A stretch of 63,284 nucleotides of DNA, the filler included, from Stramenopiles sp. TOSAG23-3 (taxonomy: Eukaryota): NCBI GenBank assembly GCA_900128585.1. It is 8 parts of 8 records of this genome, joined end to end, with 100 filler letters (N's around TTAATTAATTAA, not from the genome) between each part and the next. Parts side by side here need not be neighbours in the genome. Positions count along the whole stretch, not along the records: positions 26,530 to 35,258 come from LT642990.1; 7 more parts are not named here. One strand, given 5' to 3'. The notes beneath the pieces were generated by a model. That model searched no databases and was not told the origin of the DNA. It saw nothing but the letters and a program-made list of their open reading frames with translations. The translations under genes were made by a program, and so were the position numbers. Shown piece by piece: positions 14,801 through 40,226 of this stretch; position 1 is the first letter of the stretch, and the number at the start of each line of letters is the position of its first letter.

Positions 14801-17351
14801 ACTTTTTCGAGTGACATCTTTACAGTTTGTGGTAGGTTGTTTGCCTGTAACGGAAGAAAGTATCATGATATCTTTCAATAAGCCGATAGACATCGTGTTG
14901 TCAACCGATTCTGTGGATCCGAGAGAGTACCAGGTTAAAGATCGCCAACTTAATCTAATGTCAATGACTGTAACAATCCCTATAGTTCGCGCAACTCTGC
15001 AAGAAGCTTACCAAGCTTCAAATATTGAGTTAACAGTGTCCGACATAAAGGCACAACTGAATATGCTATTTGGTTTACGTGTTGATGCACCAGTTGAACT
15101 AGCCTACATTGATGTTGGCAGCATGGATGCGTTTTTTAGCATGACATCGTTGGAGCGTATACACACGTTTATAGCGGCATGGGCTAGTATATTAAACAAT
15201 GCAAAAGTAGTGATGGCGGAAGAAGCTGTGCATTTTTGGGGCGAAGATGGTAAAACTTCCCGCAGTGCGCAAGTACCCGATGGCCCAAAATCCAACGATG
15301 GATATACCGAAACGGATGGCGCCCAAATGGTTTTGTCCACAGCTACAAGAATTTTGTGCGGGGCAGTGACGAAAATTAAGTTGAAAATACGGAAAGTGCC
15401 CTTGCACACATTAGAACATACAGAAATTGAAGCAGTCATGCGAGATGTTGAGTATAGAGCAATGGAACCTGGAATTGTGTATGGAAAACGCGCGATGGTT
15501 TCTTCCTTTTTTGGAAGCATCTCTGATACGAAAGTAAGTATTTTCCCAGCTCGTGGACGACACAGCAGTGGGGCTTTAGATGGTGTCTTTGTTTGCGAAC
15601 GAGTGTGCACTATGGTGCTGCAAGATTATTCTCAGAACACTTTCATCAGTGCGTACGATCCGGACACCTGGGCTTCATGGCAAGGGAAATGGATGCACAA
15701 AAAGAAAGCCGTTAATACTTTCGGTTTACTTGTTGGCCCTTCAAGTGGTCGCCTAATGTTAACCGAGCGCAGCGGTGCACCGACAACCCTGCTGACGTTA
15801 GACCCAATGCTATGGACATTTATCCTGACGGAAAGGTTAGAGAAAACGGAAAAAAAGAAATTTAATGTGTGTAGTTTGGATGGGCAAATTGTTTCTGATC
15901 ACGTACTAAAAATGCGGATTAGTCATCAGACAGCCCCTTTTCTGATAAAATGGTTTGCAGAAGTTATGCGCGTTATTGCAGCAAGCAAAGCTCAGGCCAT
16001 ACGCTCTTTAACTGACCAGGGGTATGTATACTCTTCCACCATGTTCACCAAGCAGAGGAAGGATATGGGTTTTTGGGGGAATGACGACATGTCGAGGTTT
16101 GAACCTAACACGTATAGTGGGAAAGGGGAAACTCTTGCGTCTTCGTCGGATAATGATTTATTGGATTATCAAGCACACGGTGTGATCACTCTTTATATCT
16201 CTCAAATGAATTTCATATTTCCTGCCGAACGGAGTTACGGGGCATCTCGCGGTTCTATGTCCCCTTACGTCGGATTCTATGCGAAACAGGTATTTCATAG
16301 GTTTGTCCAGCAGCTGGATGACCAGGGCGATGATGTTTCTAGGAGTCTTAGCATGAACATTGGCATTGCAGCAGTCGTTATTGGTAAGATCAAGGATAAG
16401 GATGGCTCAATTTCTGGGCGAGATGAAAAAGATCTAGTAGTTTTTCCGACATCCCATTTTACTTTTCAGACAAAACATCGTGTAACGCGCAGCGTGGGCC
16501 GTGAATACCAACGCTCCAGCAAGCGTAATCGCCAGGAAAAGCTCATCGTTTATTATACTCTGCGCTCAGCATTTACAGATGCGCACACCGGTACAGCAAA
16601 TTCGACTAGGTCTTCAGCAATGGCTGAATCAATGGGCATGCCATCAAATGGAAAGCTAGACAATTCGCCTTTCAGCGACAACAAACGTTTAGGGCGCTGG
16701 GACGGGGTTTCAAATGATGAGACAGGGTCAACAGGGGATAATAAGACAGGGAGTAAGAAGCCTGGCGCAATCAAAGTTAGTAATGAGTTCGACGACTACC
16801 ACATTTTAACCCAAGTGCAGCAAAGCTATGTAAAATGGTACAGTAAAGCAAACATAGAAACAGGGCGATCGGCTAGTAGTGACAAAAAACTTCTTCTGGG
16901 AAGGAAAGATGCATACGAGCGGCGTCGAAATATTAAGCGCATACTTCATTTAGATTCCGATGGTCGAAAATTTCATAACGTGGTTCATGCATTTCAATTT
17001 GCGCCCAAGCTCAAGATACATGGCCTTGATGAATATGAAATCAAACTAAGCACTTACTTGTCAAAGTTCACATCGGTGGAACGAAACAAGGATACGGGGG
17101 AAATTGAATCACTAAGTAGAGTCATGGATACTTATTTTATCGGTTTCTTTAAACGTTTCATTGTTGGTGCAATTGCTGCCAGTCACACCTTAGATGTAAC
17201 CGAAGCTAAGCTGAATAATGCACTTTCAAAGAAAAGGCGTTCCATTGTTCATCGTGACAGGAAAGCAAAAGTCCAAAATGATGATTTTGAAGGCGACGGT
17301 AAGCCCAACAGAAGAACGAGAAGAAGACAACGGAAACATAAAGGAGAATAG
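8851..17351 (+). CDS. Giant bridge-like lipid transfer protein (BLTP1/KIAA1109/Csf1-like), 5'-partial, split by a 1-bp frameshift at the G7 run 11442-11448
   Basis: ORFs 8867-11479 and 11334-17351 join if one G is removed (E-R-G-A-I-R-S). Long beta-rich segments. The C-terminal YYTLRSAFTD...IKVSNEFDDYHIL...FAPKLK resembles the BLTP1/Csf1 C-terminus. Confidence 0.6.
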
Positions 17352-25799: not shown

Positions 25800-26645
25800 C
25801 AAGTGTGAGGACATCCAGTTTTGTACGTGTAATAGAAAAGCAAAGAAAAGACAGGCGAGTGCGAGACAATAGTGTGCGTGTGCGCGTTGAACCTCCCCGC
25901 AGAATCAACCCGATCCCACATTCGGTAAGACTTAAGAATTAGATTTTTAACGTTTGTACATAGTTTTCAATCAGTTTCTATATCACAGTTCTTACACACG
26001 TACCTTTTAAAACTAAAATCACACTTTTTATTTCAAATTGGAATCTTGACCAGAAATTAAGGAAGGGTGTGTGCAGTGCAATAGGAGGCAGCATCTACAT
26101 TTGGAGTCAGTGTAACTCAGTCTTTAACTCTTATAGATTTATTAGAACGACACAAATGTTTCAATAACATTCATTGCGTCCAAATCTTGCATTCAAGATT
26201 TATGATAACACTTAATGCTGTGACCATATTCTTTCTGATTAACACGTAGTAGTTTTCTATGACAAAAATATTACTTTTTTAGACGACTATATAAATTATT
26301 AAAATGTATGCTACAATTGTTGTCCAACTGTGCATTTCGGCAGTCTATTTGGACTCCCAGCAACGTATCCTAAGTCACAATTTTGTGACCCTCCTTTACA
26401 AGCACTACCATCGCCGTAACGCGATAGACNNNNNNNNNNNNNNNNNNNNNNNNNNNNNNNNNNNNNNNNNNNNTTAATTAATTAANNNNNNNNNNNNNNN
26501 NNNNNNNNNNNNNNNNNNNNNNNNNNNNNAGACAATTCTCTTTCGAAATATGTTTGAAACATCATTGTTACACATAGAAACGCAAGATAGAATGCAAAAA
26601 GGGGCGGTCATTGACAGAGTTCACATATAATTGCCTCGTTATAAG

Positions 26646-28040
26646 ATGCCTTATGATGGCCGTATCACAGACGGAAGTGAGCATGCAGAGTGCTGCGGGT
26701 ATAATATGAACAATGTTACTTGGAAGCGATGGAGTGGGAGAAATTTTGAATACAATGAAGGCCAAAAATACGCTGGAAACGGAATCTTAATAAGAATGGT
26801 AGGAAAACGTAAGTTTTTCCATCTCTCTACATATCCAAATGAAGATGCGTTTACTGAATTGTCTGAAAGAATGGAAGGACGAGCAACAACTGGTGGTTCT
26901 GGTAACTTAGCGTACCAGCGATGTGAATGTGGAAAGACGTTTAAACCATTTATAGGACAAGACTGTTGTGCAAGATGTCTCCTACAGCAAAAAACAAAAG
27001 TAGAAATGGAAAAAAAGAAGTTGGAGACAGATGCAGAAAATCATAGAAAGAAAGTGGAGTTGCTTTCACAGGAGTTAATGGCTCTCCAATCAGATTATGA
27101 TTTTACAAAGTCAAAGGCAGCTGAAATAGATAATCAATGGAAGATGCAACAGTTATTGCTGGATGCAGAAAAGGCCAAATCAAAAAGTTTATATAAAAAG
27201 ATTGCATCTCTGAAAGATGGCTGTACAAAACAACGATCGTTATCACGGTTAACAAAAGCCTTAGCACTCAACAGTGACGCACTATCTAACGTTCTTTCAG
27301 GGGAAGAAAAAATAAAAGGTGAGGTGGCAAACCTGAAGATCCAGTTGGATAGTTACAGGTCAGAGTTAGCTGCCGTAATTGCAAAACAACAGTTGTTGAC
27401 CACCGAGGGAAATACATCTATTATAACGTTTCTGCAGGAGACCATTTACGAAGATTCCGTTCGTTTTTTTACGGGTGTGTTTGGTGTGAGTGGCCCTTTG
27501 AACAAGAACATTAGGAAGAATTGTGTGGAGAAAAATTTAAGAGAGTTTCCAAAGCAATTTCACGGTATATTAGCATCTTCTGGTTTCTCAAACATGTCAT
27601 TTTCGTTTCGTAAAGGAGAAACATTAGAGTCTGATTTTGCGATCAAAGTACAAGATCTCCTTAATTTTGGCTGTTATATAAATGAAGAAAGTGAGACAGT
27701 ATCTGTAGGCCATATGAGGGTTGGTGATATATTTGATCTTGTAGGAAGGAAAGACATTCTTCAACCGGGGGAAATCCAACACAGTGATCGGATAGACACA
27801 GATACCCTGCAGCAATGGAGAAGAATTTCCCGTAAACGGCTGGCTTCAATGGTCATTGAGCATTTGTTCAAAAAAAACTTTTTGACCAAATACAAACGAA
27901 TAACTGCTGCCAGAATCCGATTGGACGAGACAACGTATGGCGTAATGTTGATTATAGAAGTTACGATGGCAAGTTATCGAAAAATAGGACAAAGAATGGT
28001 CCTTGATAGAGGATTGGAAACGTGGCAATCCTTGTTTTAA
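26646..28040 (+). CDS. Hypothetical protein with Cys cluster (CECG...CCARC) and central coiled coil
   Basis: Open frame of ~464 aa from ATG 26646, with a heptad-rich E/K/L segment. No family recognised. Confidence 0.6.
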   Translation: MPYDGRITDGSEHAECCGYNMNNVTWKRWSGRNFEYNEGQKYAGNGILIRMVGKRKFFHLSTYPNEDAFTELSERMEGRATTGGSGNLAYQRCECGKTFKPFIGQDCCARCLLQQKTKVEMEKKKLETDAENHRKKVELLSQELMALQSDYDFTKSKAAEIDNQWKMQQLLLDAEKAKSKSLYKKIASLKDGCTKQRSLSRLTKALALNSDALSNVLSGEEKIKGEVANLKIQLDSYRSELAAVIAKQQLLTTEGNTSIITFLQETIYEDSVRFFTGVFGVSGPLNKNIRKNCVEKNLREFPKQFHGILASSGFSNMSFSFRKGETLESDFAIKVQDLLNFGCYINEESETVSVGHMRVGDIFDLVGRKDILQPGEIQHSDRIDTDTLQQWRRISRKRLASMVIEHLFKKNFLTKYKRITAARIRLDETTYGVMLIIEVTMASYRKIGQRMVLDRGLETWQSLF

Positions 28041-28486
28041 CTCACAGCAGTTTTTGTGTATCGTTGGATATACGTCCTCTGTTTTTATCTTTTCGTCTAT
28101 GTACCATTGATAGGGTAACCAATAGTACCAAATATGTATATTAAAATCATAATTTTGTAGCTAGATTGGCCTAGAGCTACCTCCCCCCCGTTTTTTTTAT
28201 ACCTATTAAAAGTATCCTTATTAGTATTACGAATCGTAGTCTTTTAACAAAATACGGTACAGCCATTCATTTACAAGTTTTTATTAAATTTTCTGTATCG
28301 TACAAGTTTTTTATTATTTATTATTATTAATATTACTAGCAGTTTCTTTGAAACTTTTGCAAGCTAAACAAAATTGCTATGGAAGAAAACTTTGAGCATA
28401 TTATTTAACAAACTGTTTATTCTTCGGTTTATAATTCGAATTATATTACTGTGCATGACAATTATTATACATTTAATTTGTTTTGA

Positions 28487-30307
28487 ATGAGTTCTGAAGC
28501 ATTGTGGCGTGGTAGTGACTCGCAATTTGGGTACTCCCCATTTGTCAACCGTAACTTTCAATTCAAGGTGTGTAGTTCATATCGAGTGCGTGACTTTGTC
28601 CTGTCAAATTCCCGCGCTTACACCTGTCATATTATCAACAGTTGCACCAGCGCACTGTTGGAATTGATTATAAGAAGGGGGGGGGTGCATCTTGGCGACG
28701 CAGGAGGGTTCTGTGACCAGTGGGAGATTGGATGGTCAGACCCAAAAACTGAAAGGGGATTTCACAAGCGATCTGTTATAAAGCTACTTGGGGAGGGGAC
28801 GGATTATCTGGAACAAATTTCAAAAGGAGTAACCCAAAAGGAGTTCCTGGATGCAGCAAAAAAGTATATCGAAAAGGAAAGGGAAGAAAGGTCAATATCG
28901 TTTGTTATATGCTCGACCTTCATGGCGTACACCAACAATGTCGTAAATGGGGCGACCTTGAGAGCTTTGTGTGCATGGTGTGAGGCCAAAGACCTGCACC
29001 TGATCATGGATGACACGCTTGGTTCTTTTAGGTTGAGTGGCGATCTCTGCAGTTGGAACGGCGTGATTAATTTTTATCCCCATGGATATATTCTTGGCTC
29101 AAAAACATTTGGATGTGCGTCCTTATGGATAAAGTCAAATTTGGTAGAAATGTTTTCTGTCTTGGTACCAAACTTTTCTGGTAGTCATGTCTTGCAAGAT
29201 TGTCTGGGTCGGTTTAAAAGGACATATCAATACGTGGCAAAGCTAGCCAGAAAAAGATATTCGGATGCAGAAACTGTTAGGAAATACTATAAATTCTGCG
29301 GGGGGGCGTTCTTTTGGTGGGTTGGAGAGCCAGTCACTGAGAAATGCAAATGGATTCTAAACTTGATGAAAACTTGGAGGTACGACAAGAGGATTTTAGT
29401 ACCTTTCGATTACGATTTCAAACCGGTTCTGAAAAGAATCAGAGAGGAAAAGAAAAAAGGGTTAAAAGTGGAAAAAGAAAGAGCGAAAAACCGAAAAAGA
29501 AAGCGAGAGCAAAGGGCAACGAACGCCCTGCTACCGAAGTTTGAAATGGTGAAAGTAAATTCAACACTGCTGGTTCCATTCGGGATGGCAAATCTGGAAT
29601 CGAGTAATTATATCAATGGATCCGTAGTGGGTGTAAACAAACAAGGCCGGGTGATAAAGAGATTGGGACAGCTTTTGCACCAAGAAATTGAAATCATCCG
29701 CAAAAAATGCCGTATAAGAGGAGAAGTGGAGTCGCCAGTTGCAATATGGAATGATGTTTCTAATCCACCAGCCCCACAATTTCTTCACAGTGATGGGGCA
29801 GCAATGAGTGTGTTCATACCTGTAAGTGAGTTTGGGCGTCAATTGGATGTGCTGGCCTTGTTTGGAGGAAAATTTTTGCGCGTACGGGTACATATACCAT
29901 ATGGAACTGTGTTAAAGTTCAATGCATCTGTGTTCCACGGGGGTTCACCAGGGAATGATCATTCGCCTAACCCTTGCATCCACTTTTATGTGGACATAAG
30001 TGCAGATGAAGAAACATTCCTACATAGGAGATTACGATGCTTTCGGCTACCAGAGGCACAAAATTATATGCCGGCTGACATGGTTTGTAACAATGGCACA
30101 CTGAATATGGCTATTGTTAGAAAGAATGGCGTTTTGCCCTTGGAACACTTCAAAGATATAATGGTTGGTTGGTATCCAGGATGCAATGAGTGGGATGTAA
30201 CTTCGACTGATGCCAGTATGGACGAATCCAAAATGAATGATTCCAGTACGTACGAATTCAAAGAATGTTCATATGATGAATTTGTAGTTGCTGCAGATAA
30301 AACTTAA
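28487..30307 (+). CDS. Fusion of PLP-dependent aminotransferase-like (fold I, class III-like) domain and 2OG-Fe(II) oxygenase (PhyH-like) domain
   Basis: LRALCAWCEAKDLHLIMDDTLGSFR (D175) and PHGYILGSKTFG (K206) mirror the class III LIxDE...PD...K pattern. PQFLHSD (H434, D436), MSVFIPV and GTVLKFNASVFHGG (H484) give the HxD...H triad. A basic NLS-like linker separates the two domains. Confidence 0.6.
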   Translation: MSSEALWRGSDSQFGYSPFVNRNFQFKVCSSYRVRDFVLSNSRAYTCHIINSCTSALLELIIRRGGVHLGDAGGFCDQWEIGWSDPKTERGFHKRSVIKLLGEGTDYLEQISKGVTQKEFLDAAKKYIEKEREERSISFVICSTFMAYTNNVVNGATLRALCAWCEAKDLHLIMDDTLGSFRLSGDLCSWNGVINFYPHGYILGSKTFGCASLWIKSNLVEMFSVLVPNFSGSHVLQDCLGRFKRTYQYVAKLARKRYSDAETVRKYYKFCGGAFFWWVGEPVTEKCKWILNLMKTWRYDKRILVPFDYDFKPVLKRIREEKKKGLKVEKERAKNRKRKREQRATNALLPKFEMVKVNSTLLVPFGMANLESSNYINGSVVGVNKQGRVIKRLGQLLHQEIEIIRKKCRIRGEVESPVAIWNDVSNPPAPQFLHSDGAAMSVFIPVSEFGRQLDVLALFGGKFLRVRVHIPYGTVLKFNASVFHGGSPGNDHSPNPCIHFYVDISADEETFLHRRLRCFRLPEAQNYMPADMVCNNGTLNMAIVRKNGVLPLEHFKDIMVGWYPGCNEWDVTSTDASMDESKMNDSSTYEFKECSYDEFVVAADKT

Positions 30308-30437
30308 TATAGGTAATTAAAAAAATATACAGTACCAATAATAAAATATTTTACGAATTAAAACCATCTACCCCGACGCGAAGAATGCCTTCAACTCACA
30401 AGACCGCCGCCCTCAAGCACTGCCCGGCCGAATATTT

Positions 30438-33400
30438 TTAACGAGAAACAGTAATTCCTTTCATAAAGATATATTTTGTACGCTGTTTTACCCTTTTTGC
30501 CATTACTTTCACATCCTTTGCAGTTGCATTTCCGTTTGCAAGAAACCCTACTGCATCTTGGATTAGCTGATCTAACGCCGATATATTAGCGTACGAGCAG
30601 TACATACAGTCCTCATTCTCTATGCACCGACCGCAAATGCACCCTACACCGTCATAATCGTGAAATGTTTTTATGTATGAACTTTTGCTTTCTCGCGTCA
30701 GAGTGTTGCTTTTATGGTGTACGTATTGTGCTCTAATCTCTTTTAATGGCTGTGGGTCAACCATCTCACCGTAAGTGTGAGTCAGTAAAATTTTGATCAG
30801 CTTAGACAAACAAGAACTCTTGTTTGTACTGGAGCTTACAATTGAGCGATATACTGGAAGTGATTTCACATATTGATGATAAGATTCCATAACTTCCAAT
30901 AAGCCTACTTCCCCTAGGGAAAATCCGTGAGACACCAGCTTATCCATGACATCTGGACCAACAGTTGTTGCAATCAAATCATATGGTCGAAATAAATCTG
31001 GAAAGCAGTAAACTTGCAGAAACTCCAATTTAGCAGCTGCTCTTCGATACCCTTCAGCTATCTCCGTTAATTCTTTTGCTTTCGTTTCCTTGTCTTCAGC
31101 ATGAGTGGAGGCACTCATATAATATACAAGTTCCCTGCTGTAGATTCCCATTAAATAAATTGATGAGAATATATCTTGCATTCCCTTCTCTGTTTTCGGT
31201 TTTCCTGTTTTCTTATGTACCTTTATTGCTTCCTGGAGAACACGAAGTAATTCCTCAACATGAATTAGAACCTGATTTGCCTGCTCTCCTATCAATCGCC
31301 TTGAGCATATATCATCCTTTCCTAAAAACGATTCCAAGTGCTTCCGAGATTCACTATATATTGCAAAGTTAGCTTTTGCGGCAGTTTTCAAAAATAGTAT
31401 TTCTGTTTTCTCAGCGTACACTATCAGCTTTGAGCGAAAGATTGGCCTGTGGAGCGCTTTTAGAAAATAGTCCAACGAGGGCCCCAGCTCCTTCTTGTCT
31501 GCAATTTTGTGACCCATGTGCTCATCATACATGGCTAAACTATTTGTGCACAGTGCAAGCAAATCAGCCACTTTTGTAGTCTTATAATGCAATGCGCATA
31601 GAGCAACCATCGCCCATGTTACTTCACTGCCAAACAAAGGCTCTGGGTTCACTAGACCTATGCCCATCGATTTTGCAAATGCAGCTCGATCGGTTTCCGG
31701 GGTCTTTTTTACCTCCTCACGTAAAAATTGCAAAATCTCAGGTGTCATTTGCACAGGCTTCGGCAGATTTTCTTCAGAAAATGGTCTAACTTCAGTTGCT
31801 CTCCTACGCTTCTTTCTGCCTTTCCGCACTGAATACGTTTCTTCGTGTTTTCTAAGGGCCTCTTTTCTTTTACGGAAGACAACTTTCAGTTCCTCTAATG
31901 TTAGTTGTCGTGCAGCAAAAATAGAGAAAGGGTTTTCACTGTTTCGTCCAATAGTCCCGTACCCTGAATTTTGCTTGCACATAAAAACTGCTGAAGGGTA
32001 ACAGAACGGGCTACGATGGTCTGCAAATCCAAACAACTTATTCAAAGCCTTCATATCACACGCCGGAATGTATGCAACATCGGTATGGTAGTCAATGGTA
32101 CCATCAGATCTGACAGTTTCTAACTTGTGTCTTGCAACGTCTTTCTGAAACGATAGCATCGACTCCGCAATTTGTCCACACAGTATATGTGCTTCTGCAG
32201 AATCTTCTTTAACATTTGCGATCAAAATTGGAATCATCTGCTCACGAGTTTGTGAAATATTCTCATTTAATATACGCACTAGGACAATCAGCTGATCTTT
32301 CTGTTGCCCTGATTTTGTCCTTGGTGCCCCGTCAAAGTGGATGGTAATATACAAGGTTCCCCCATGTATGTATGACTCCTTGCGCATATAATGGTTTATG
32401 GCCATTTTGATTCGATAATTCATTAATTGTCCAAACTCTTTGACGTATGCATGGTCTTTCAGCACAGTTTCGGATTGAGCAAGAAAATGCTCAATGCCAG
32501 ATTCACGAAGCATCTCCTTTGCAGTTTCACTATCTAAATTTGTTGACAACTCACTCATTTTTATTGGATACGTTTCATTTCCGACTGGTACATACCAAGT
32601 AGCATTAACAAAGCGCCAGTGAACCAATTTCTTTTGAGTTCTACTTAAAATCTTTTGTTGTGCTACTGTCACATTTGCTCTCCACCGATTTAAGAGCTCC
32701 TTTATTCGCTTCTCTTCATTCATTGCTTTAATCTCGAACTCAATAATTTCGATCAGATCCTTAACAATATCTGCTTTTGTTCTTTCATCGACAAGCCCCT
32801 TTCGTTGATTTGAAGTGAGGTTCTCCTGGAACTTTCCAAACAAACCAATAACGTTTTGAACACACTCATCTTGTTCGGTAGCAAATTCTATTTCATCAAC
32901 AGAACTAGAAGAATGGACTAAATCGTCCAGTGTTGATACACAATTGTTATCATTCTCGCAATGTATAAAGACAGACTTACTTGTCCCACTAAATGGACAC
33001 TTTGCGCATTCAAAGGAATTATGAACATTCAGAACTGTTCCTATTACATCATTGCGCTCATTAACGTCCTGCACTATATCAATTTTTTCGAAAAACTCTT
33101 TGCAAATGTCATCCCTGCTGACAATCATCATATTAGCCTTTGCATTAATTTTTGCATACAGACTCTTTTCTTCTGCAGTCATTCCAGTTAGAGCACTACG
33201 CAAAACCATCTGCGCCCATTTGTGTCCTCCAGAGCAAAACCAATTCGAGTCCATATAAAGTCCAACTGCCTTTGACACAATTTTTTTCAATTCATCAGCA
33301 TCATGTGTATGTGTGAACTCCATAACATGCCATCGTGTTGGAAGGCCAGAACATGTGTACGGTGTTTTCATGACTATGAAATACTGCATAGCTGCTAAAG

Positions 33401-35258
33401 TGATAACACTGGATTTACTCTTAGTGCGCTTCCACAAATCTATCCATCTAGATTTGGTTAGGTCCACAGGTGGCCGCATAGACAAAAGACAATCCTTGAT
33501 GCCATAATCAGCCAGGTCGTTTCTAATCAAAGAACGGCGAATAAAGAATACACCTTGCATGCGGTCATTGCCAGCTGCCATTTGTACTGTTAGAGTACGA
33601 AACGCAATAAACTGCTGATGCCAATGTGGTTTATTGCTGTTTAAAATGGCCAACTTTTCTTCTGTTGGAAACTTTGAAGTACGATCAGCAAGAAAAGCAA
33701 TATTTACTTTTGACATCCGTATGCAATTTATTGCAACAATTTTATGTTCCGGAGACCATCCCTCCCAAAATGCAAAAAATATCATATTATTGCTATTGTA
33801 AATTCTTTTGGATGCTCCCAACTGTTTTAATTTCTCCTTTAAATTTCCAGCTTTGTTCAACGCAACTCCAAAGTTGTACTCAAACTCGCCAAACGATTTT
33901 AGGCCTATACATGTATGTGCTGAAACTGCTGCATTTAGATTTCTTATAGCAGTTCCTAATGCATGTAAATCATGGAAAACCCCCGCAAAATAGTTTTTTA
34001 AATCATACCCAAAAGAATTCATTTGGGGAAATGCAATACGAAGAGCTTTTTGAGCATCCAGTACACCACATCCTGCTTCAATAATGCTGAAGGCAGAGGT
34101 CTTTAAACCTGACAGTTTCACAAGATACGCAAGCGTGCCCAGTACTTGTGCTAAGGACCGATCACACATGGTACCTGAGTGCCCATTGTCTGCATTGTGT
34201 GATAGTGCTTCCCATACAGCTTTCCACCCTGGAATTCGTCTTAAAGAAACCAGTAATGCTTCCATTTCCCGCTCCATTTCGCGAACGCGTTCCTTGTTAA
34301 TGTTTATTCGACGTTTAAATTGTTTGAAATTTTTGAAGAATCGTCTCCTTATATGGGACGGGTCAAGAGTACGATTCAACTTTAACTGGCGCTGAAGTTT
34401 CCGTATTGTTTTTACAGGAGTATAATGCTGACGTTTCTTTCTACCAGAATTTGGTATGCCGAGTTTTTTTCGATAAAAATTTGTAGCCTGTGCTGCAAAA
34501 GGAGCACGTTTGCTCTTCTTCTTCCTTAGCCGGTCTTTTTTCTTCTTCTTCATGTGACGTTCTAGTACAACTTTAACACGCCTTAAATAGTTTGTTTGTT
34601 TGAAGTACCCTGCCTTATGAAGTTGATTAAATACTGCTTTACGCCGTTCTGGTTGTCTATTAATATTGTGTTTTGAATGTACCTGCAGAATAAGCAATGC
34701 CTCAAAAGAAGTAATGGTTCGTTCTGGGTTACAAAGACAAAATTTTTTGTGCAAATCAAGAGATCTCCAACTAATTTCAGTACAAAAGTCACAATAACAG
34801 CATTTCCACTTGTGAGTGCCAGACTGTCTGCGCTGCACAGATTTCTGTTGCTTTAAAAGATAGTTTTGTAGTGATGCGAAACTGGACTCACCCAATATGG
34901 AGGCAACTGCACTATTAGTCATTGTGTCGTCGGAGGCAACTTCACTATTAGTCATTGTGTCGTCATTTTTGGAATTTTGATGTTGGGTGGGATGACGGCG
35001 GCGCCGACGTCGCCTACGGTGCCTACGGTGGTGCACCTTTTTTCCTGGGTCCTCTTTGCTACTATCTGAACCTGACGTAGATAATGATACGCTAGAAGCA
35101 TTCGATTCGGGTCCTGGCATAAATAATGATACGCTAGCAGCATTCGATTCGGGTACTGCCACAGATAATGATACGCTAGAAGCATTCGATTCGGGTACTG
35201 CCACAGATAATGATACGCTAGAAGCATTCGATTTGAGTCCTGCCATAGATAATGATAC
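30438..35258 (-). CDS. RAG1/Transib-like DDE transposase fused to class I SAM-methyltransferase-like domain and Zn fingers (>=1602 aa, possibly 5'-partial)
   Basis: Ordered motifs IHFDG (D972), PILIANVKED (E1014), ACDMKALNKLFG (D1064), CALH (H1220), LIGEQA and FRPY...SLGEVGLLEVMESYH (E1451/E1454) match RAG1 D600/E662/D708/H795/E959-E962. IIEAGCG...FGYDL is MTase motif I/II. CCYC...H...C is a Zn finger. Numbering is from ATG 35246. Confidence 0.75.
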   Translation of the reverse strand, partial: VSLSMAGLKSNASSVSLSVAVPESNASSVSLSVAVPESNAASVSLFMPGPESNASSVSLSTSGSDSSKEDPGKKVHHRRHRRRRRRRRHPTQHQNSKNDDTMTNSEVASDDTMTNSAVASILGESSFASLQNYLLKQQKSVQRRQSGTHKWKCCYCDFCTEISWRSLDLHKKFCLCNPERTITSFEALLILQVHSKHNINRQPERRKAVFNQLHKAGYFKQTNYLRRVKVVLERHMKKKKKDRLRKKKSKRAPFAAQATNFYRKKLGIPNSGRKKRQHYTPVKTIRKLQRQLKLNRTLDPSHIRRRFFKNFKQFKRRININKERVREMEREMEALLVSLRRIPGWKAVWEALSHNADNGHSGTMCDRSLAQVLGTLAYLVKLSGLKTSAFSIIEAGCGVLDAQKALRIAFPQMNSFGYDLKNYFAGVFHDLHALGTAIRNLNAAVSAHTCIGLKSFGEFEYNFGVALNKAGNLKEKLKQLGASKRIYNSNNMIFFAFWEGWSPEHKIVAINCIRMSKVNIAFLADRTSKFPTEEKLAILNSNKPHWHQQFIAFRTLTVQMAAGNDRMQGVFFIRRSLIRNDLADYGIKDCLLSMRPPVDLTKSRWIDLWKRTKSKSSVITLAAMQYFIVMKTPYTCSGLPTRWHVMEFTHTHDADELKKIVSKAVGLYMDSNWFCSGGHKWAQMVLRSALTGMTAEEKSLYAKINAKANMMIVSRDDICKEFFEKIDIVQDVNERNDVIGTVLNVHNSFECAKCPFSGTSKSVFIHCENDNNCVSTLDDLVHSSSSVDEIEFATEQDECVQNVIGLFGKFQENLTSNQRKGLVDERTKADIVKDLIEIIEFEIKAMNEEKRIKELLNRWRANVTVAQQKILSRTQKKLVHWRFVNATWYVPVGNETYPIKMSELSTNLDSETAKEMLRESGIEHFLAQSETVLKDHAYVKEFGQLMNYRIKMAINHYMRKESYIHGGTLYITIHFDGAPRTKSGQQKDQLIVLVRILNENISQTREQMIPILIANVKEDSAEAHILCGQIAESMLSFQKDVARHKLETVRSDGTIDYHTDVAYIPACDMKALNKLFGFADHRSPFCYPSAVFMCKQNSGYGTIGRNSENPFSIFAARQLTLEELKVVFRKRKEALRKHEETYSVRKGRKKRRRATEVRPFSEENLPKPVQMTPEILQFLREEVKKTPETDRAAFAKSMGIGLVNPEPLFGSEVTWAMVALCALHYKTTKVADLLALCTNSLAMYDEHMGHKIADKKELGPSLDYFLKALHRPIFRSKLIVYAEKTEILFLKTAAKANFAIYSESRKHLESFLGKDDICSRRLIGEQANQVLIHVEELLRVLQEAIKVHKKTGKPKTEKGMQDIFSSIYLMGIYSRELVYYMSASTHAEDKETKAKELTEIAEGYRRAAAKLEFLQVYCFPDLFRPYDLIATTVGPDVMDKLVSHGFSLGEVGLLEVMESYHQYVKSLPVYRSIVSSSTNKSSCLSKLIKILLTHTYGEMVDPQPLKEIRAQYVHHKSNTLTRESKSSYIKTFHDYDGVGCICGRCIENEDCMYCSYANISALDQLIQDAVGFLANGNATAKDVKVMAKRVKQRTKYIFMKGITVSR
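34899..34964. repeat. 33-bp tandem duplication (DDTMTNSxVAS x2)
   Basis: GGAGGCAACT(G/T)CACTATTAGTCATTGTGTCGTC occurs twice with one mismatch. Confidence 0.9.
35079..35258. repeat. 42-bp coding minisatellite (SNASSVSLSVAVPE-like), >=4.3 copies, runs off contig end
   Basis: ATAATGATAC recurs at 35081, 35123, 35165, 35207 and 35249. Confidence 0.92.
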
Positions 35259-35358
35259 NNNNNNNNNNNNNNNNNNNNNNNNNNNNNNNNNNNNNNNNNN
35301 NNTTAATTAATTAANNNNNNNNNNNNNNNNNNNNNNNNNNNNNNNNNNNNNNNNNNNN

Positions 35359-35713
35359 GATGTCTTCTTCCAGTGCTGCCGAAGGACTTCGGCGCATGCA
35401 GGAAGATCCTGATATTCGCGGCGAGGCTTTGGCAGCGGCGACGACGGTGCCCCAAGGAGGGACCCGTGGAGCAGCTCGGGCGTACCATAGTAGCGTGTGC
35501 ATGAAACTATCGTGTATTCCTTCCTTATCAGTCGAGTGTTTTCCCATGTCCGCAAACATCATGCTTCTCGACCCCGGCACTAGAAACACGTACCAGAATG
35601 CGATGGCAAAGCAGGCAGCTGGAGTAAACGCGTCCAACTATCAAGCGCATGGACGCACATATTCTACAGTACGGAGAAAAATCACTGGCCCCCGAGTCTT
35701 CCTCAAATGCTGA
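35359..35713 (+). CDS. Possible 3' fragment of an unknown gene
   Basis: GC-richer open frame from the contig start to TGA 35713. No motif recognised, and the opposite strand is also open. Confidence 0.3.
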
Positions 35714-35855
35714 TTGATTCGTTGTGTTTTCTAATCGTGATACATTTGAGTCAGTGTTTTATGTGTGGAATTTAAAATATATTTGTGAACTCGTAGGGAT
35801 TTCAAACCGCTAGAGATGAAAATTGAGTGTTATTTGAAATTTAAGCAACGCGTCG

Positions 35856-36668
35856 CTATCTATTTTGATTTCTCCGCCTATGGCGACGAAACGCTTTCTG
35901 CAAGGTCCAAACTGCATGCAATGCGGGTGCCATTTCATATTCCCCACCACTTTCCTCGACATGTTCTACCCATGCAGCAGGCTCATCCCATTGGGATTCA
36001 CCAGTGTTTTCCTCATAATAATAATACGATTGGGATGCTTCGTCCCATAATCTAAACCATCGGGGTTGGTATTCTTGCAACGCGGCACTTTGCCACCAAG
36101 AGTTGAGATTACTTTGCCATTCCTGGAGGTATTCCACCGTTTTCTCCGAGTACTCGGCCATTTCTTCATTGTATTTCTTCCAATACTTCTCAACTTCGGA
36201 AGAATAGTTTGCTACGTCGGCCTTTGTCTGCTGCTGCAACTGCTCCCATGCGGCCGCTTTCTTGCGCCACTCTTCTATGGCATTCGCTATTTCGAAAGCA
36301 GAATCTAAGTGAGAGAGAACGGGGGGCCGAGGTGGACCGTCGGCTTCATCAGTTTGTTCATTCGCGTTGGGCAGGAATTGCCTTCCTACAGATTCAATAT
36401 TGCATCTGCAAAGCGGACAAGTAATTAATTGTGACGCACAGCTGCGGCATATATTTTGGTGCGCGCACGGGTGTAAAACTGCGTCTGCGCGCCTATCGTA
36501 GCATATAACACACAGCTCTTCTTGGTCAGAATCGTCGCCTGTTCCATACGCAGTAACAGTTGGTTGCTGTTGTACTGCCACATCTCTCGCATGAGACGCC
36601 GAGTGCACTCGCAAGTGCACCGAATTTTTGAAGGAGCGGGCGCAAGTCGGACATATGAACCGTGCCAT
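35856..36668 (-). CDS. C2H2 zinc finger / RING finger / WW / IQ protein (putative E3 ligase)
   Basis: C2H2 FICPTCARSFKNSVHLRVHSASH, RING CVICYD...PCAHQNICRSC...CPLCR, WW WFRLWDEASQSYYYYEENTGESQWDEP and IQ-like LQKAFRRH. ATG at 36668. Confidence 0.85.
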   Translation of the reverse strand: MARFICPTCARSFKNSVHLRVHSASHARDVAVQQQPTVTAYGTGDDSDQEELCVICYDRRADAVLHPCAHQNICRSCASQLITCPLCRCNIESVGRQFLPNANEQTDEADGPPRPPVLSHLDSAFEIANAIEEWRKKAAAWEQLQQQTKADVANYSSEVEKYWKKYNEEMAEYSEKTVEYLQEWQSNLNSWWQSAALQEYQPRWFRLWDEASQSYYYYEENTGESQWDEPAAWVEHVEESGGEYEMAPALHAVWTLQKAFRRHRRRNQNR

Positions 36669-37870
36669 ACCGGAAGTCAGCTTGACTGTACAAAACTGTT
36701 TATTTTTCAGGTTCCCCAGAGAAGCCGAAGCGAACGACGAGCACTTTGCTGAATTGTCTGTCACGCCAAAGGCATCAAAATGCGGATGAAATTAGCTTTA
36801 AGGTGGTAAAGGCAAACTCAAGACTCCAGAGGGCAGGTGGATATTATTCTTTGCTATTTTAGTCGTCTACTCCGTTCTTCTTCTTCGTGCAGTTGTTTTT
36901 AGTCGTACCAGGTATTTGATTATAATATAATATTTAGGAATATTTAGGAAAAATATTATACAGTAGCATCATAATTGTTGTTTTTATTTTTTTTTATATT
37001 ATTATTTTAGATAGAAGGATCTAGAAAGAAGACGACGACTTATTTTTAATAGTCTATAATATATTGACTAATAATAGATAATAAAAATAACTTATTTGAC
37101 GACTACCACCCCAGCGGGTTTACCTTTTGTATAGACTTATAAAAAATAATAATTAAAAATGACAACAACCACAGCAGTACATCTCATTATTATTATTATT
37201 ATTATGAAATTGGAAGAAGTGGTTCAGTATTAAATATTAATTAATACAAACACCACCACTTTGGAAGGAAAAGAAAAAACCAAGAAGGAAAGAAGTTCGG
37301 GTTTCAGTATTAATATTTTAGCTAATAAATATTTATTAAAATGATGTACGACGAGGACAAGGAATTATCAATGGATTAAATTATAAAAAAGTTTTTTTGA
37401 CAAATCAGAGGGATGGAGGAGGAGGAGGAGAGGAGGAATTCATTCAGAAAAAAAGAAGAAGAGAGAAGAAAGAAGAAGGCCGTTGAGAGTTATTATAAGG
37501 CAAATAGCGGGGAAAAAACGTTGTTCAATTAAATAAAAATATTATTATTATAATTTTTTATTATTATTATTTATTAGTCGTCTCTTATTATACCTGGTAC
37601 ATAATAATACACAAAAAAATAATAATATATAATAATTAATAATAAAGAGAATCGATCGGCGGGGAATTGTACGACAGTTGTTATAGAGTGGACTATACAG
37701 TAGTTTAAAATAATAAAGAAAGAAGAATAGAAGAGGGGAAAAAAGTTCTTCTTCGTTTAAATAGATATGTCATTTGAAGAGAGTGTTGCTGTTTGATTTC
37801 TCAAGGAGTGTCCGTTGCCGTTTGGTGGAGGACTTTGAGACCACGCGGTTTATTGGCGAGGTAGAAAAGT

Positions 37871-38983
37871 ATGGGTTGTGCAGGCTCTAGTACCCGGCCC
37901 GCCGTGCAGGACGAGAAAAATGCAGGTAACGACGAGGGGGGAGGGAAGGCGAGACGAAATATAAGCCGGAGAAATACAATCAATGGGCCCTTGGGAATTG
38001 ACATGGAAGGGTCAAAATACGCAGTAAAGGTAGATGCAAGTAAGCCGAATTACGGTGAAATAGACAGTGAAGGGGCGCAGCCAGCGGGGGGCACGGTGGC
38101 AACGGGCTTGCCGATCGTTTATGGTAGCAGAAGCCGCCCTGGTTTCAACCCGACAAAGCGCCGAAAAAAGAACCAGGACTGCTTCGTGGTACAAGAGAAG
38201 TTTTGTGAGAGGGACGACCAGATTTTTGTTGGGGTGTTTGATGGCCATGGAGTCAATGGAAAAAATGCGTCTCATTTTTGTAGAAAATCCCTTCCCAAAA
38301 ACTGCCGCAGGGGTTTGGAGAAGTTCGATGGTAACGCCGAGGCGTGCGCGAACGAGGGGCGGTTGCGGGACGTGGTCAAGACAGGTTGCGCTAATACTAG
38401 CAGTGCGCTGGCGAACAGTTCTATTGACGTGTACGTTAGCGGGACCACCTGCATATCTAGCATAATTTGTGGTAGAAAAATGTGGACCATGAACGTGGGG
38501 GATAGCCGAGCGGTTATGGGGAAGTCCATCAACGGGCGGGTGAAAGCGGTGGATTTGTCGACAGACCAAAAGCCCGATCGAAAAGACGAAGAAGTCCGTA
38601 TTTTGAAAAAGGGTGGAAGAGTTTTTGAGTGGGGGGTGCCGCGTGTGTGGCTTAAAGACGTAGATATGCCCGGCTTGGCCATGTCACGGTCGTTTGGGGA
38701 TTTAGCAGCAGAATCAGTAGGCGTTCACGCCATCCCAGAGATTAAGGAGACGTTTTTGGGGTTGGGCTGTAAGTTTTTAATATTTGCCTCTGACGGAGTT
38801 TGGGAATTCATCAGTTCGCAGGAGGCGGTCGATATTGTTTCGACGTGTTACAAGAACTCCAAGAGTCCGCAAGAGGCCTGCAAGGTATTGGTTGATGAAA
38901 GCGTCAGCCGTTGGAAACGCAACGACGATAGCATTGACGATACCACAGCGGTGGTCATGTACTTGAATTTTGACGAGCGGTAA
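37871..38983 (+). CDS. Protein phosphatase 2C (PPM family), N-terminally acylated
   Basis: NQD, VFDGHG, NVGDSRA, GLAMSRSFGD, ASDGVWE and DDTT motifs. MGCAGS is a myristoylation/palmitoylation motif. Confidence 0.95.
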   Translation: MGCAGSSTRPAVQDEKNAGNDEGGGKARRNISRRNTINGPLGIDMEGSKYAVKVDASKPNYGEIDSEGAQPAGGTVATGLPIVYGSRSRPGFNPTKRRKKNQDCFVVQEKFCERDDQIFVGVFDGHGVNGKNASHFCRKSLPKNCRRGLEKFDGNAEACANEGRLRDVVKTGCANTSSALANSSIDVYVSGTTCISSIICGRKMWTMNVGDSRAVMGKSINGRVKAVDLSTDQKPDRKDEEVRILKKGGRVFEWGVPRVWLKDVDMPGLAMSRSFGDLAAESVGVHAIPEIKETFLGLGCKFLIFASDGVWEFISSQEAVDIVSTCYKNSKSPQEACKVLVDESVSRWKRNDDSIDDTTAVVMYLNFDER

Positions 38984-39368: not shown

Positions 39369-40226
39369 TCAGCTGGTGGCATTGTCCAAGAAATCGTTTT
39401 GCATTTCTGCCATGTGTTTCATGGCGTTTTTATACATTTCTTCGTTTACGTTTTTGATGGAAAAATACAGGTGATACTTTCGTAAGTGGTTCTGAAGCTC
39501 TATTTTTCTCATTACTACGAAGCCAGCCTCCGACAGAAGCGCCGAGCGATTATCACTGTGAGAAATCAGAAAGAAAATATTGCTGGTGACCCTATATATT
39601 TCGTTCAAAATTTTCAACACCTCCGGATGCTGCTGTTTCAGCTGCTCAAGTGAAACGTCATCGTTAACCCCTGTCAAAAGGGCGTCTAGGGTGCCCTTGT
39701 CAATAGAAACATCAAACGATTTTTCATTAAAAGTCATTTCACACGCGTCCATTTTCAAAAACTTAAGCCGTTTCTCGCCCACATACTTTTCGTTCAGTAC
39801 TCGAACGGCGGATTCGGAAATGTCGATTCCAGTGACCCTGCCGTAGTTGGCCTCGCATATACTCCAAGGAAGCAGACTCATGCCACAGCCTACGTCCAAA
39901 AATGATAAATCTGCTGGTGGATCTGGCAAGAATCGCGTAAAACTAGGTGCAATCATGGCAAAATCAACGAACCATTCGTTCCGCTCAACACCCACGTCAC
40001 TCAACGACGACTTGGCATAGCGGTCCTCCCAATACCTTGCAGAGGAGTAGAAGGATTTGTTCCCTCTTTTCGTCATATTCCTCCGACTGCGCTTACAGCA
40101 CACGTCACACTCTCCTGCATCATGCTCAACCTTCAAGTGAATGCACTGTTTGCGGGAGTGGCCGTTTACTCCACAGTATTTACAAGTTTCTTCTGCACTA
40201 GCGGCCGTCGTTGTGAGCGTGGCCAT
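39369..40226 (-). CDS. EEF1AKMT4/METTL13-like SAM methyltransferase with N-terminal CCHC zinc knuckle
   Basis: YWEDRY, EWF, LDVGCG, GIDIS, MDA and DKGTLDAL motifs. CKYCGVNGHSRKQC knuckle. Confidence 0.85.
   Translation of the reverse strand: MATLTTTAASAEETCKYCGVNGHSRKQCIHLKVEHDAGECDVCCKRSRRNMTKRGNKSFYSSARYWEDRYAKSSLSDVGVERNEWFVDFAMIAPSFTRFLPDPPADLSFLDVGCGMSLLPWSICEANYGRVTGIDISESAVRVLNEKYVGEKRLKFLKMDACEMTFNEKSFDVSIDKGTLDALLTGVNDDVSLEQLKQQHPEVLKILNEIYRVTSNIFFLISHSDNRSALLSEAGFVVMRKIELQNHLRKYHLYFSIKNVNEEMYKNAMKHMAEMQNDFLDNATS

Follow-up and report, generated by a model that had tools for sequence, protein, structure and literature searches.

A predicted class I methyltransferase domain ahead of the core of a RAG1/Transib-like transposase from a stramenopile

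Related systems and the locus

RAG1, which assembles antibody genes, derives from Transib-like transposons and is a textbook example of domestication; the origin of its non-core N-terminal enzymatic region, where the module is a RING E3 ligase, is debated (Kapitonov and Jurka 2005). Tao et al. (2022) described RAG1-like and Transib genes from fungi, plants and bacteria as well as from a stramenopile alga. Here, a 63,284-nucleotide stretch of DNA from Stramenopiles sp. TOSAG23-3 (GenBank assembly GCA_900128585.1; below, the window) was analysed. A minus-strand open reading frame (ORF) of 1602 codons, 30438-35246, encodes a protein, P0001, that combines a RAG1/Transib-like core with a predicted fold of class I methyltransferases, which use S-adenosylmethionine (SAM). 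A nearly identical but longer public protein, P0002, carries an Ulp1-type protease in addition. The family would represent a distant RAG1-like transposase that independently gained two other enzymatic modules.

A different fusion is found in SETMAR, a domesticated primate gene that joins a SET domain to a mariner transposase; its SET fold is not the seven-beta-strand (7BS) fold considered here. Retrotransposons that bear DNA methyltransferases (DNMT) share with P0001 the principle of a mobile-element protein that is combined, by fusion or by joint encoding, with a methyl-transferring enzyme plausibly linked to chromatin or silencing, but the enzymes there are C5 DNA methyltransferases in retroelements (de Mendoza et al. 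2018), whereas a 7BS domain is found here in a microbial eukaryote, in a DNA transposase of the RAG1/Transib type. Transposons with an Ulp1 peptidase are also known in stramenopiles, in the form of Cryptons. The Ulp1 (C48) peptidase of oomycete and diatom Cryptons recalls the N-terminal Peptidase_C48 of P0002, but their recombinase is a tyrosine recombinase, whereas the present protein combines a RAG1-like DDE enzyme with a methyltransferase (Kojima and Jurka 2011).

P0001 resembles RAG1, the RAG1-like proteins and Transib (HzTransib, lancelet BbRAG1L, Aureococcus AanRAG1L) in the structure of its core, in two invariant Asp residues, in the spacing of a candidate Glu and in a C-terminal Cys cluster. 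A further resemblance to RAG1 is the long accessory region at the N-terminus, which includes an enzymatic module. The differences are that the P0001 family has a methyltransferase and an Ulp1 protease there, not a RING, that Pfam gives no RAG1 match to P0001, and that the sequence relatives of P0001 are its own small family only. A RAG1-like core is in itself no novelty among microbial eukaryotes, given the RAG1-like genes known from a stramenopile alga (Tao et al. 2022), and the core described here may already be present in the supplementary catalogue of RAG1-like fragments in 'primitive eukaryotes' of the same paper. In the literature searched, outside of which the supplements of Tao et al. 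(2022) lie, no fusion of a methyltransferase with a transposase of the Transib or RAG1-like kind was found; the word 'methyltransferase' has 0 occurrences in a 2021 preprint on DDE transposons. We regard this as a known transposase superfamily in a new domain architecture, with a new branch of class I methyltransferases that is invisible to sequence profiles.

A predicted methyltransferase fold in a RAG1-like transposase

A structural model of aa (amino acids) 330-620 of P0001 was built with AlphaFold2 from an alignment of 10 sequences. The best model had a mean predicted local distance difference test (pLDDT) of 80.6 and a predicted template modelling score (pTM) of 0.79, and the pLDDT of the five models spanned 74.9-80.6. 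Seven strands (387-391, 410-415, 455-459, 488-493, 514-521, 546-556 and 562-570, in P0001 numbering) alternate with helices, which are placed between strands 1-6, and the last two strands form a terminal beta6-beta7 hairpin. A Foldseek comparison of this model with the PDB returned 339 matches at E<=1e-3, the best of them RsmG (8.5e-6). The 40 PDB matches listed (from ranks 1-50) were all SAM methyltransferases or methyltransferase-fold proteins, with a probability of 1.00 in each case; RsmG, MnmM, COMT, METTL5-TRMT112 (TMq 0.43), ChlM and NNMT were among them. When the BFVD collection of viral models was used instead, 58 matches at E<=1e-3 were obtained, and methyltransferases accounted for most of the named rows, alongside several unnamed or otherwise-named proteins. 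A class I SAM methyltransferase-like domain had been proposed for this region in the original prediction, which was made from the sequence; the seven-stranded Rossmann fold that such a domain calls for is the one predicted by AlphaFold2, and SAM methyltransferases are what Foldseek matches to it. Compared with generic class I methyltransferases (RsmG/GidB, MnmM, METTL5, COMT-like proteins, ChlM and NNMT; E of 8.5e-6 to 1e-4 among the matches listed), the domain has the same seven-strand topology and the same positions of the SAM motifs, and it differs in a strand-4 motif, F-W-E-G-W, and in a W-rich lead segment, both peculiar to the P0001 family.

Conservation of the motifs was counted in 7 full-domain sequences and that of the lead segment in 10 aligned sequences. 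The ExGxG loop of Motif I follows directly after strand 1, and its E390 and G392 are present in 7/7 sequences. Position 415, the last residue of strand 2, is D or E in all seven; an acidic residue at this place (Post I) makes the ribose contact in class I methyltransferases. At the end of strand 4, the site termed Post II, F493-W494-E495 is found in 7/7 sequences, as is K502 in the next helix; the motif reads F-W-E-G-W in 6/7 and F-W-E-S-F in P0011, the most distant homologue. Upstream of Motif I, the lead segment, which may cover the methionine end of SAM, contains five residues (W341, W345, G355, G358 and T359) that are invariant in 10/10 aligned sequences. A [DE]xGxG string is found once in the 1602 aa, against 0.36 expected from composition, which is weak evidence when taken alone. 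The motif rises above chance because it stands after strand 1 of a confident seven-strand model, is conserved down to 24 % identity, and belongs to a model that matches solved SAM methyltransferases.

These results agree in part with what had been proposed earlier. All four strings quoted in the original prediction occur in the P0001 translation where they had been placed: HSGTMCDRSLAQVL at aa 356-369 (34140-34181), IIEAGCG at aa 388-394 (34065-34085, with the E390 codon at 34077-34079), SFGYDL at aa 411-416 (33999-34016) and IFFAFWEGWSPE at aa 489-500 (33747-33782). The proposed span of 33540-34230 corresponds to aa 340-569 and agrees with the predicted fold, aa 362-570, together with the lead segment, aa 338-359. 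Both the placement and the conservation of the Rossmann SAM signature (ExGxG and an acidic residue that ends strand 2) were upheld, the former by the model and the latter in the 7 sequences. Conservation of the GCG string is complete for G392 but not for its neighbours, as C393 is Asn in one of the seven sequences (P0004) and G394 is Ser in another (P0011). The domain had also been described as fused inside the transposase; it does belong to the same continuous ORF, but it is located ~290 residues upstream of the catalytic core and not within it.

The RAG1-like nature of that core (aa 860-1602) was indicated by a language-model search and by structure. In ESM Atlas, aa 900-1560 shared 185 features with RAG1 clusters, at a score of 0.95, and matched unnamed cnidarian, fungal and arthropod clusters as well. 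The AlphaFold model of the core is weak (pLDDT 53.3, pTM 0.42, 6 sequences). When it was compared with the PDB, ranks 1-48 among the Foldseek matches listed were all RAG1, BbRAGL or HzTransib (best E of 1.1e-5, 26 matches at E<=1e-3, alignments of ~600-690 columns, TMq 0.20-0.28), and the first unrelated match appeared at E=0.28. A family-profile search of PDB sequences at E<=10 yielded no RAG1 or HzTransib match. The RAG1-like context assumed earlier for the methyltransferase is therefore supported by ESM Atlas and Foldseek, but not by sequence profiles.

There are candidates for all three catalytic residues of the core, of which we leave the third unassigned. D972 and D1064 each come after a predicted strand, which is the arrangement of an RNase H-like core. 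E1321, the candidate Glu, is located 257 aa after D1064; the spacing between the second Asp and the Glu is 253 aa in RAG1 and 206-214 aa in Transib (Kapitonov and Jurka 2005). It is kept as a candidate only, since the residue is Phe in P0011 and since E1408, E1446 and E1454 are invariant alternatives. The C-terminal four-Cys cluster of the core may correspond to the C-terminal tail of RAG1-like/Transib proteins, whose tail domains were described by Tao et al. (2022).

Identity between P0001 and its homologues was determined separately for each region. For the methyltransferase domain it was 62, 48, 48, 47 and 24 % (P0003, P0004, P0005, P0006 and P0011, respectively), and for the RAG1-like core 61, 46, 48, 45 and 26 % in the same order. 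The linker between them was 42, 29, 31 and 34 % identical to that of the first four proteins and had no match in P0011, and the N-terminus was matched by P0003 alone (35 % over aa 171-316). Judged from these identities, selection on the methyltransferase domain looks as strong as that on the recombinase core. In the full-length protein, an Ulp1 (C48) protease is followed by a low-complexity, basic region with a Cys/His cluster, the methyltransferase, a Cys2HisCys cluster, the RAG1-like core and a C-terminal Cys cluster. All full-length homologues (P0002-P0006 and P0011) have the same collinear architecture, and the fusion is therefore older than their divergence to ~25 % identity. The truncated, 575-aa P0007 also contains the domain.

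Several results weigh against the methyltransferase assignment. No Pfam methyltransferase model was matched by any family member (0/10 at E<=10). Searches of five of the proteins against PHROGs and NCBIfam gave nothing significant, the sole match being a sub-threshold one of P0010 to a sugar O-methyltransferase (E=0.025). Nothing relevant was found among PDB sequences, either by phmmer with P0001 or by hmmsearch with the family profile (an unrelated ABC-transporter binding protein appeared at E=0.15), and hhalign of the family alignment against a conventional methyltransferase encoded in the window at 39372-40226 returned a probability of 1.7 %, which is uninformative. The structural matches themselves are modest, with Foldseek TMq of 0.30-0.43, E of about 1e-5 and identities of 8-18 %. 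The model was built from 10 sequences only, and its lead segment is poorly modelled (mean pLDDT of 49-61 over domain residues 1-30, and below 50 at residues 20-28). RNA methyltransferases make up many of the top structural neighbours. Finally, P0011 has Ser in place of the third Gly and Phe in place of the candidate Glu, and it may, going by these substitutions, be inactive or domesticated; alternatively, the Phe may mean that the Glu assignment itself is wrong.

The superfamily is clear, but with modest TM-scores and E-values of about 1e-5 a subfamily cannot be named. Pfam places P0001 in no family above cut-off, neither a methyltransferase nor RAG1. The ESM Atlas search with the domain gave methyltransferase clusters (MetW, DOT1) at 0.87-0.90, which is of lead grade only; its top rows were giant-virus clusters of 'putative methyltransferase' (0.90, with MetW on ~20 % of the members) and an unnamed cluster. 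The domain is thus missed by Pfam, NCBIfam and PDB sequence searches, yet it is as tightly conserved as the catalytic core. We regard the fold and its fusion to the transposase, taken alone, as very probable. We conclude that aa 338-570 (window 33537-34235, minus strand) is a genuine, extremely divergent class I SAM-dependent methyltransferase domain, which a RAG1/Transib-like DDE transposase carries as a conserved accessory module.

Possible activity and substrate, and rival explanations

SAM would be bound by the ExGxG loop and the acidic end of strand 2, and we consider it fairly probable that SAM is indeed bound and that the domain is an active enzyme. In 7BS lysine methyltransferases the substrate is positioned by Post II, where strand 4 ends, and DOT1L, PrmA and VCP-KMT have an Asn or Asp there that aligns the lysine to be methylated (Falnes et al. 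2023). In P0001, F493-W494-E495 would orient a substrate nitrogen for methyl transfer to a protein. Protein N-methylation is the mechanism that we prefer, but we hold it tentatively, at below an even chance. The acidic residue that ends strand 4 fits nitrogen methylation, and a DPPY-type motif is absent. Candidate targets are chromatin proteins near the element or its target site and the transposition complex itself, and the methyltransferase and the SUMO-type protease could together form an N-terminal chromatin-modifying or anti-silencing toolkit, analogous to the ubiquitin-ligase (RING) module of RAG1. Overall, we lean towards this reading as a whole, in which a RAG1-like transposase carries a divergent, active class I methyltransferase that N-methylates a protein and is part of a chromatin toolkit.

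A much more far-reaching version, which we consider rather unlikely, is that a RAG1/Transib-like transposon lineage in microbial eukaryotes possesses its own chromatin-writing kit, i.e., a new family of 7BS N-methyltransferases and a SUMO-type protease fused to the recombinase, and marks histones or chromatin proteins at the element or its target, opening chromatin or blocking silencing. If true, this would be an independent parallel to the RAG1 RING ligase and to the PHD finger of RAG2, which reads histones, and it would suggest that the coupling of DNA cleavage to chromatin chemistry is recurrent in this transposase superfamily. If the domain is active, it would establish a methyltransferase family of its own, marked by F-W-E as a novel Post II motif, and would offer a tractable system for finding out whether cut-and-paste transposition, or escape from silencing, involves modification of chromatin or of the transposase by the transposase.

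The original prediction had suggested that the domain is possibly DOT1-like. A true DOT1-family histone lysine methyltransferase of the H3K79 (histone H3 lysine 79) type, marking nucleosomes at the element or at insertion sites, would share with P0001 the class I fold, the acidic-x-G-x-G Motif I, the acidic Post I, a small upstream motif (the conserved G-T) and an aromatic-rich strand 4, and a Lys/Arg-rich stretch does precede the domain. Among the human 7BS lysine methyltransferases, moreover, DOT1L alone has a histone substrate (Falnes et al. 2023). Pfam DOT1 was carried by 7 of the 10 ESM Atlas rows listed (scores of 0.87-0.89 with 150-155 shared features, again of lead grade and explicable by distant kinship or by chance), but the Atlas matches, at 150-159 shared features, fall under the 170 that is typical of the same family. 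The DOT1 profile, PF08123, matched 0/10 members at E<=10, no DOT1 or DOT1L chain was present among the 40 PDB rows listed of the 339 matches at E<=1e-3, and none of the 50 viral rows listed was named DOT1. Strand 4 ends in the invariant Glu495, whereas DOT1L has the lysine-positioning Asn241, and the P0001 domain, unlike DOT1L, is embedded in a transposase. Membership in the DOT1 family was rejected, as the profile, the listed fold matches and the strand-4 residue are all contrary to it; the language-model lead remains, and we rate such an enzyme as quite improbable. The qualifier 'DOT1-like' is not supported. Methylation of nucleic acid (transposon ends, target DNA or RNA) would accord with a DNA-binding recombinase flanked by basic and Cys/His segments, and retrotransposons with captured DNA cytosine methyltransferases provide a precedent (de Mendoza et al. 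2018). Many structural neighbours, namely RsmG, MnmM, METTL5, TrmI, TrmN, KsgA, RmtB, Hen1 and the African swine fever virus (ASFV) capping enzyme, act on RNA, but their rank is weak evidence because RNA methyltransferases dominate the PDB. A Cys at the end of strand 4, the site where C5-cytosine methyltransferases need one, is lacking. The DPPY-type motif, which is usual at that place in N6-adenine methyltransferases (Falnes et al. 2023), is lacking too, as is the general (D/N/S)PP(Y/F/W) form of the N6-adenine/N4-cytosine amino-methyltransferases, F-W-E-G-W (F-W-E-S-F in P0011) being found instead, and a nucleic-acid substrate is, in our estimate, unlikely.

The two other explanations concern not the substrate but whether there is catalysis, or a methyltransferase fold, at all. 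The domain could be a methyltransferase-fold pseudoenzyme, i.e., a structural or dimerisation module, or a sensor of SAM or S-adenosylhomocysteine (SAH), that does not catalyse. Its divergence beyond the reach of every profile tried, a Post II motif unlike that of any nameable family and the G394S change in P0011 would all fit such a role. However, conservation peaks at the residues expected to bind SAM (E390 and G392 invariant, D/E415 in 7/7), an invariant acidic residue occupies the substrate position and conservation of the domain equals that of the catalytic core, all of which make a pseudoenzyme distinctly unlikely. Were the domain inactive, it would still be a clear case of a fold-level domain overlooked by annotation pipelines. 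It could also be argued that the AlphaFold model, made from a shallow alignment of 10 sequences, drifted to a Rossmann-like topology and that the motif is there by chance: TMq is 0.30-0.43, support at the level of sequence is absent, and a single [DE]xGxG is not rare in a protein of this size. Such an artefact is very improbable, given the pLDDT and pTM of the model, the agreement of the five models and the Foldseek probability of 1.00 for the matches listed; in addition, the invariant motifs are positioned at topologically correct strand ends, and methyltransferase clusters were also obtained in an independent language-model search.

The gene, its family and its neighbours

Coordinates of the features in and around the transposase gene are collected in Table 1.

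Table 1. Features of the transposase gene and its surroundings (window positions; residues in P0001 numbering)
Feature	Position	Strand	Basis or remark
Gap (runs of N around the TTAATTAATTAA linker)	26430..26529	.	Sequence inspection; second gap, of the same make-up
469-aa ORF	26631..28040		Within the 8.7-kb piece; without significant Pfam match
Convergent 606-aa ORF	28487..30307	+	Stop codon 130 bp from the transposase stop codon
ORF P0001	30438..35246	-	N-terminal accessory region, methyltransferase domain, linker, RAG1/Transib-like core; 5' end missing
RAG1/Transib-like transposase core, aa 860-1602 (743 aa)	30441..32669	-	ESM Atlas, Foldseek
C-terminal four-Cys cluster, aa 1536-1552	30591..30641	-	C1536, C1538, C1547 and C1550 in 6/6
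E1321, candidate catalytic Glu (IGEQAN)	31284..31286	-	E in 5/6, Phe in P0011; uncertain
D1064, candidate second catalytic Asp (CDMK)	32055..32057	-	6/6; 92 aa after D972; putative assignment
D972, candidate first catalytic Asp (HFDG)	32331..32333	-	6/6; after predicted strand 963-971; putative assignment
Putative Cys2-His-Cys cluster in linker, aa 745-769	32940..33014	-	Sequence reading; C, C, H, C in majority consensus
Class I (seven-beta-strand) SAM-methyltransferase fold, aa 362-570	33537..34163	-	AlphaFold2 model, Foldseek
Strand 4 and Post II, aa 488-497 (MIFFAFWEGW)	33756..33785	-	Model and alignment
Post I, strand 2 with terminal acidic residue, aa 410-415 (NSFGYD)	34002..34019	-	Model and alignment
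Motif I, strand 1 and glycine loop, aa 386-396 (FSIIEAGCGVL)	34059..34091	-	Model and alignment
Conserved lead segment, aa 338-359 (IPGW...W-E...GT)	34170..34235	-	Alignment
N-terminal Cys/His-rich cluster, aa 145-175, then Lys/Arg-rich stretch	34722..34814	-	Sequence reading; no Pfam match
Gap (runs of N around the TTAATTAATTAA linker) removing the 5' part of the gene	35259..35358	.	Sequence inspection

The reading frame of P0001 is open as far as the gap at its 5' side, where the true N-terminus is lost. With a gap at either end, the transposase gene is therefore located on an 8.7-kb contig piece, 26530-35258, which also contains the 606-aa and 469-aa ORFs. P0002, which has 1892 aa, is identical to the window protein at 1595/1603 aligned positions (99.5 %). 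Its alignment, to window positions 35258-30441, starts at P0002 residue 286, and the ~290 extra N-terminal residues include the Ulp1/Peptidase_C48 domain (4.3e-33, Pfam). A gap-bounded piece and a 99.5 %-identical copy would be expected of a repeated element with recent activity, and the entire piece may be one repeated element that was placed by scaffolding; alternatively, P0002 possibly represents the same locus, as an allele or from a different assembly. Neither a second copy of the gene nor an Ulp1-coding segment was found in a search of the window, and an inverted-repeat search of 25800-37900 returned only the gap linkers and AT-rich chance pairs, both ends of the piece being gaps. The first 60 residues of P0001 (window 34950-35258, minus strand) contain tandem, low-complexity ESNASSVSLS-like repeats followed by an Arg/His run; the repeat region is directly downstream of the expected end of the Ulp1 domain.

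The family is small. A HMMER scan of 1,835,955,588 proteins returned 9 family representatives at E<=1e-3, and word-indexed searches retrieved the same small family only. A pattern scan of prokaryotic genomes gave 112 pattern matches, 0 of which were confirmed by tblastn. Most family members are carried on contigs of 4.7-7.9 kb. In P0003 (1989 aa), an Ulp1 remnant (E=6e-4) scores 20.2 bits, just below the cut-off of 20.7 bits. Between this remnant and the methyltransferase, at aa 310-409, P0003 has a thioredoxin domain (6.8e-28) amid proline/valine-rich repeats, and the N-terminal accessory region is therefore variable in the family, unless, as is possible, the thioredoxin domain results from a gene-model fusion. 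P0011 (1459 aa) has, besides the G394S change, IGFQAN in place of IGEQAN and a long insertion inside its methyltransferase domain.

The transposase gene and the 606-aa ORF are arranged tail-to-tail, which is the layout of RAG1L and RAG2L in RAG-like transposons. The 606-aa protein matches no Pfam family at E<=0.1, and hence no kelch or PHD domain; its best PDB sequence match was no better than E=1.1. Only 3 homologues of it were found, all unannotated and 36-39 % identical, some of them on 8-9 kb contigs. In view of these results it was not filed as a RAG2-like partner, no other such (kelch/PHD) partner having been detected; it may be cargo of the element.

Beyond the gap at the 5' side of the transposase gene, 35859-36764 (minus strand) encodes a 302-aa protein with a C2H2 finger, a C3HC4 RING (6.7e-12) and a WW domain (8.8e-7), which is probably a host gene. 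The conventional class I methyltransferase gene at 39372-40226 (minus strand; Methyltransf_11/25/31, ~1e-11) is 4 kb off in the window and, with the hhalign probability of 1.7 %, apparently unrelated to the transposase domain. Further away, two very long ORFs of 870 and 2005 aa (8867-17351, plus strand) have no Pfam match at 1e-5, and 57657-61304 (minus strand) encodes a 1216-aa protein full of teneurin-type EGF repeats (2e-120). The remaining genes of the window are ordinary eukaryotic ones, mainly long uninterrupted ORFs, and code for an SMC protein, a PP2C, an XPD-like helicase, an aspartyl protease, an ankyrin protein and a Myb protein.

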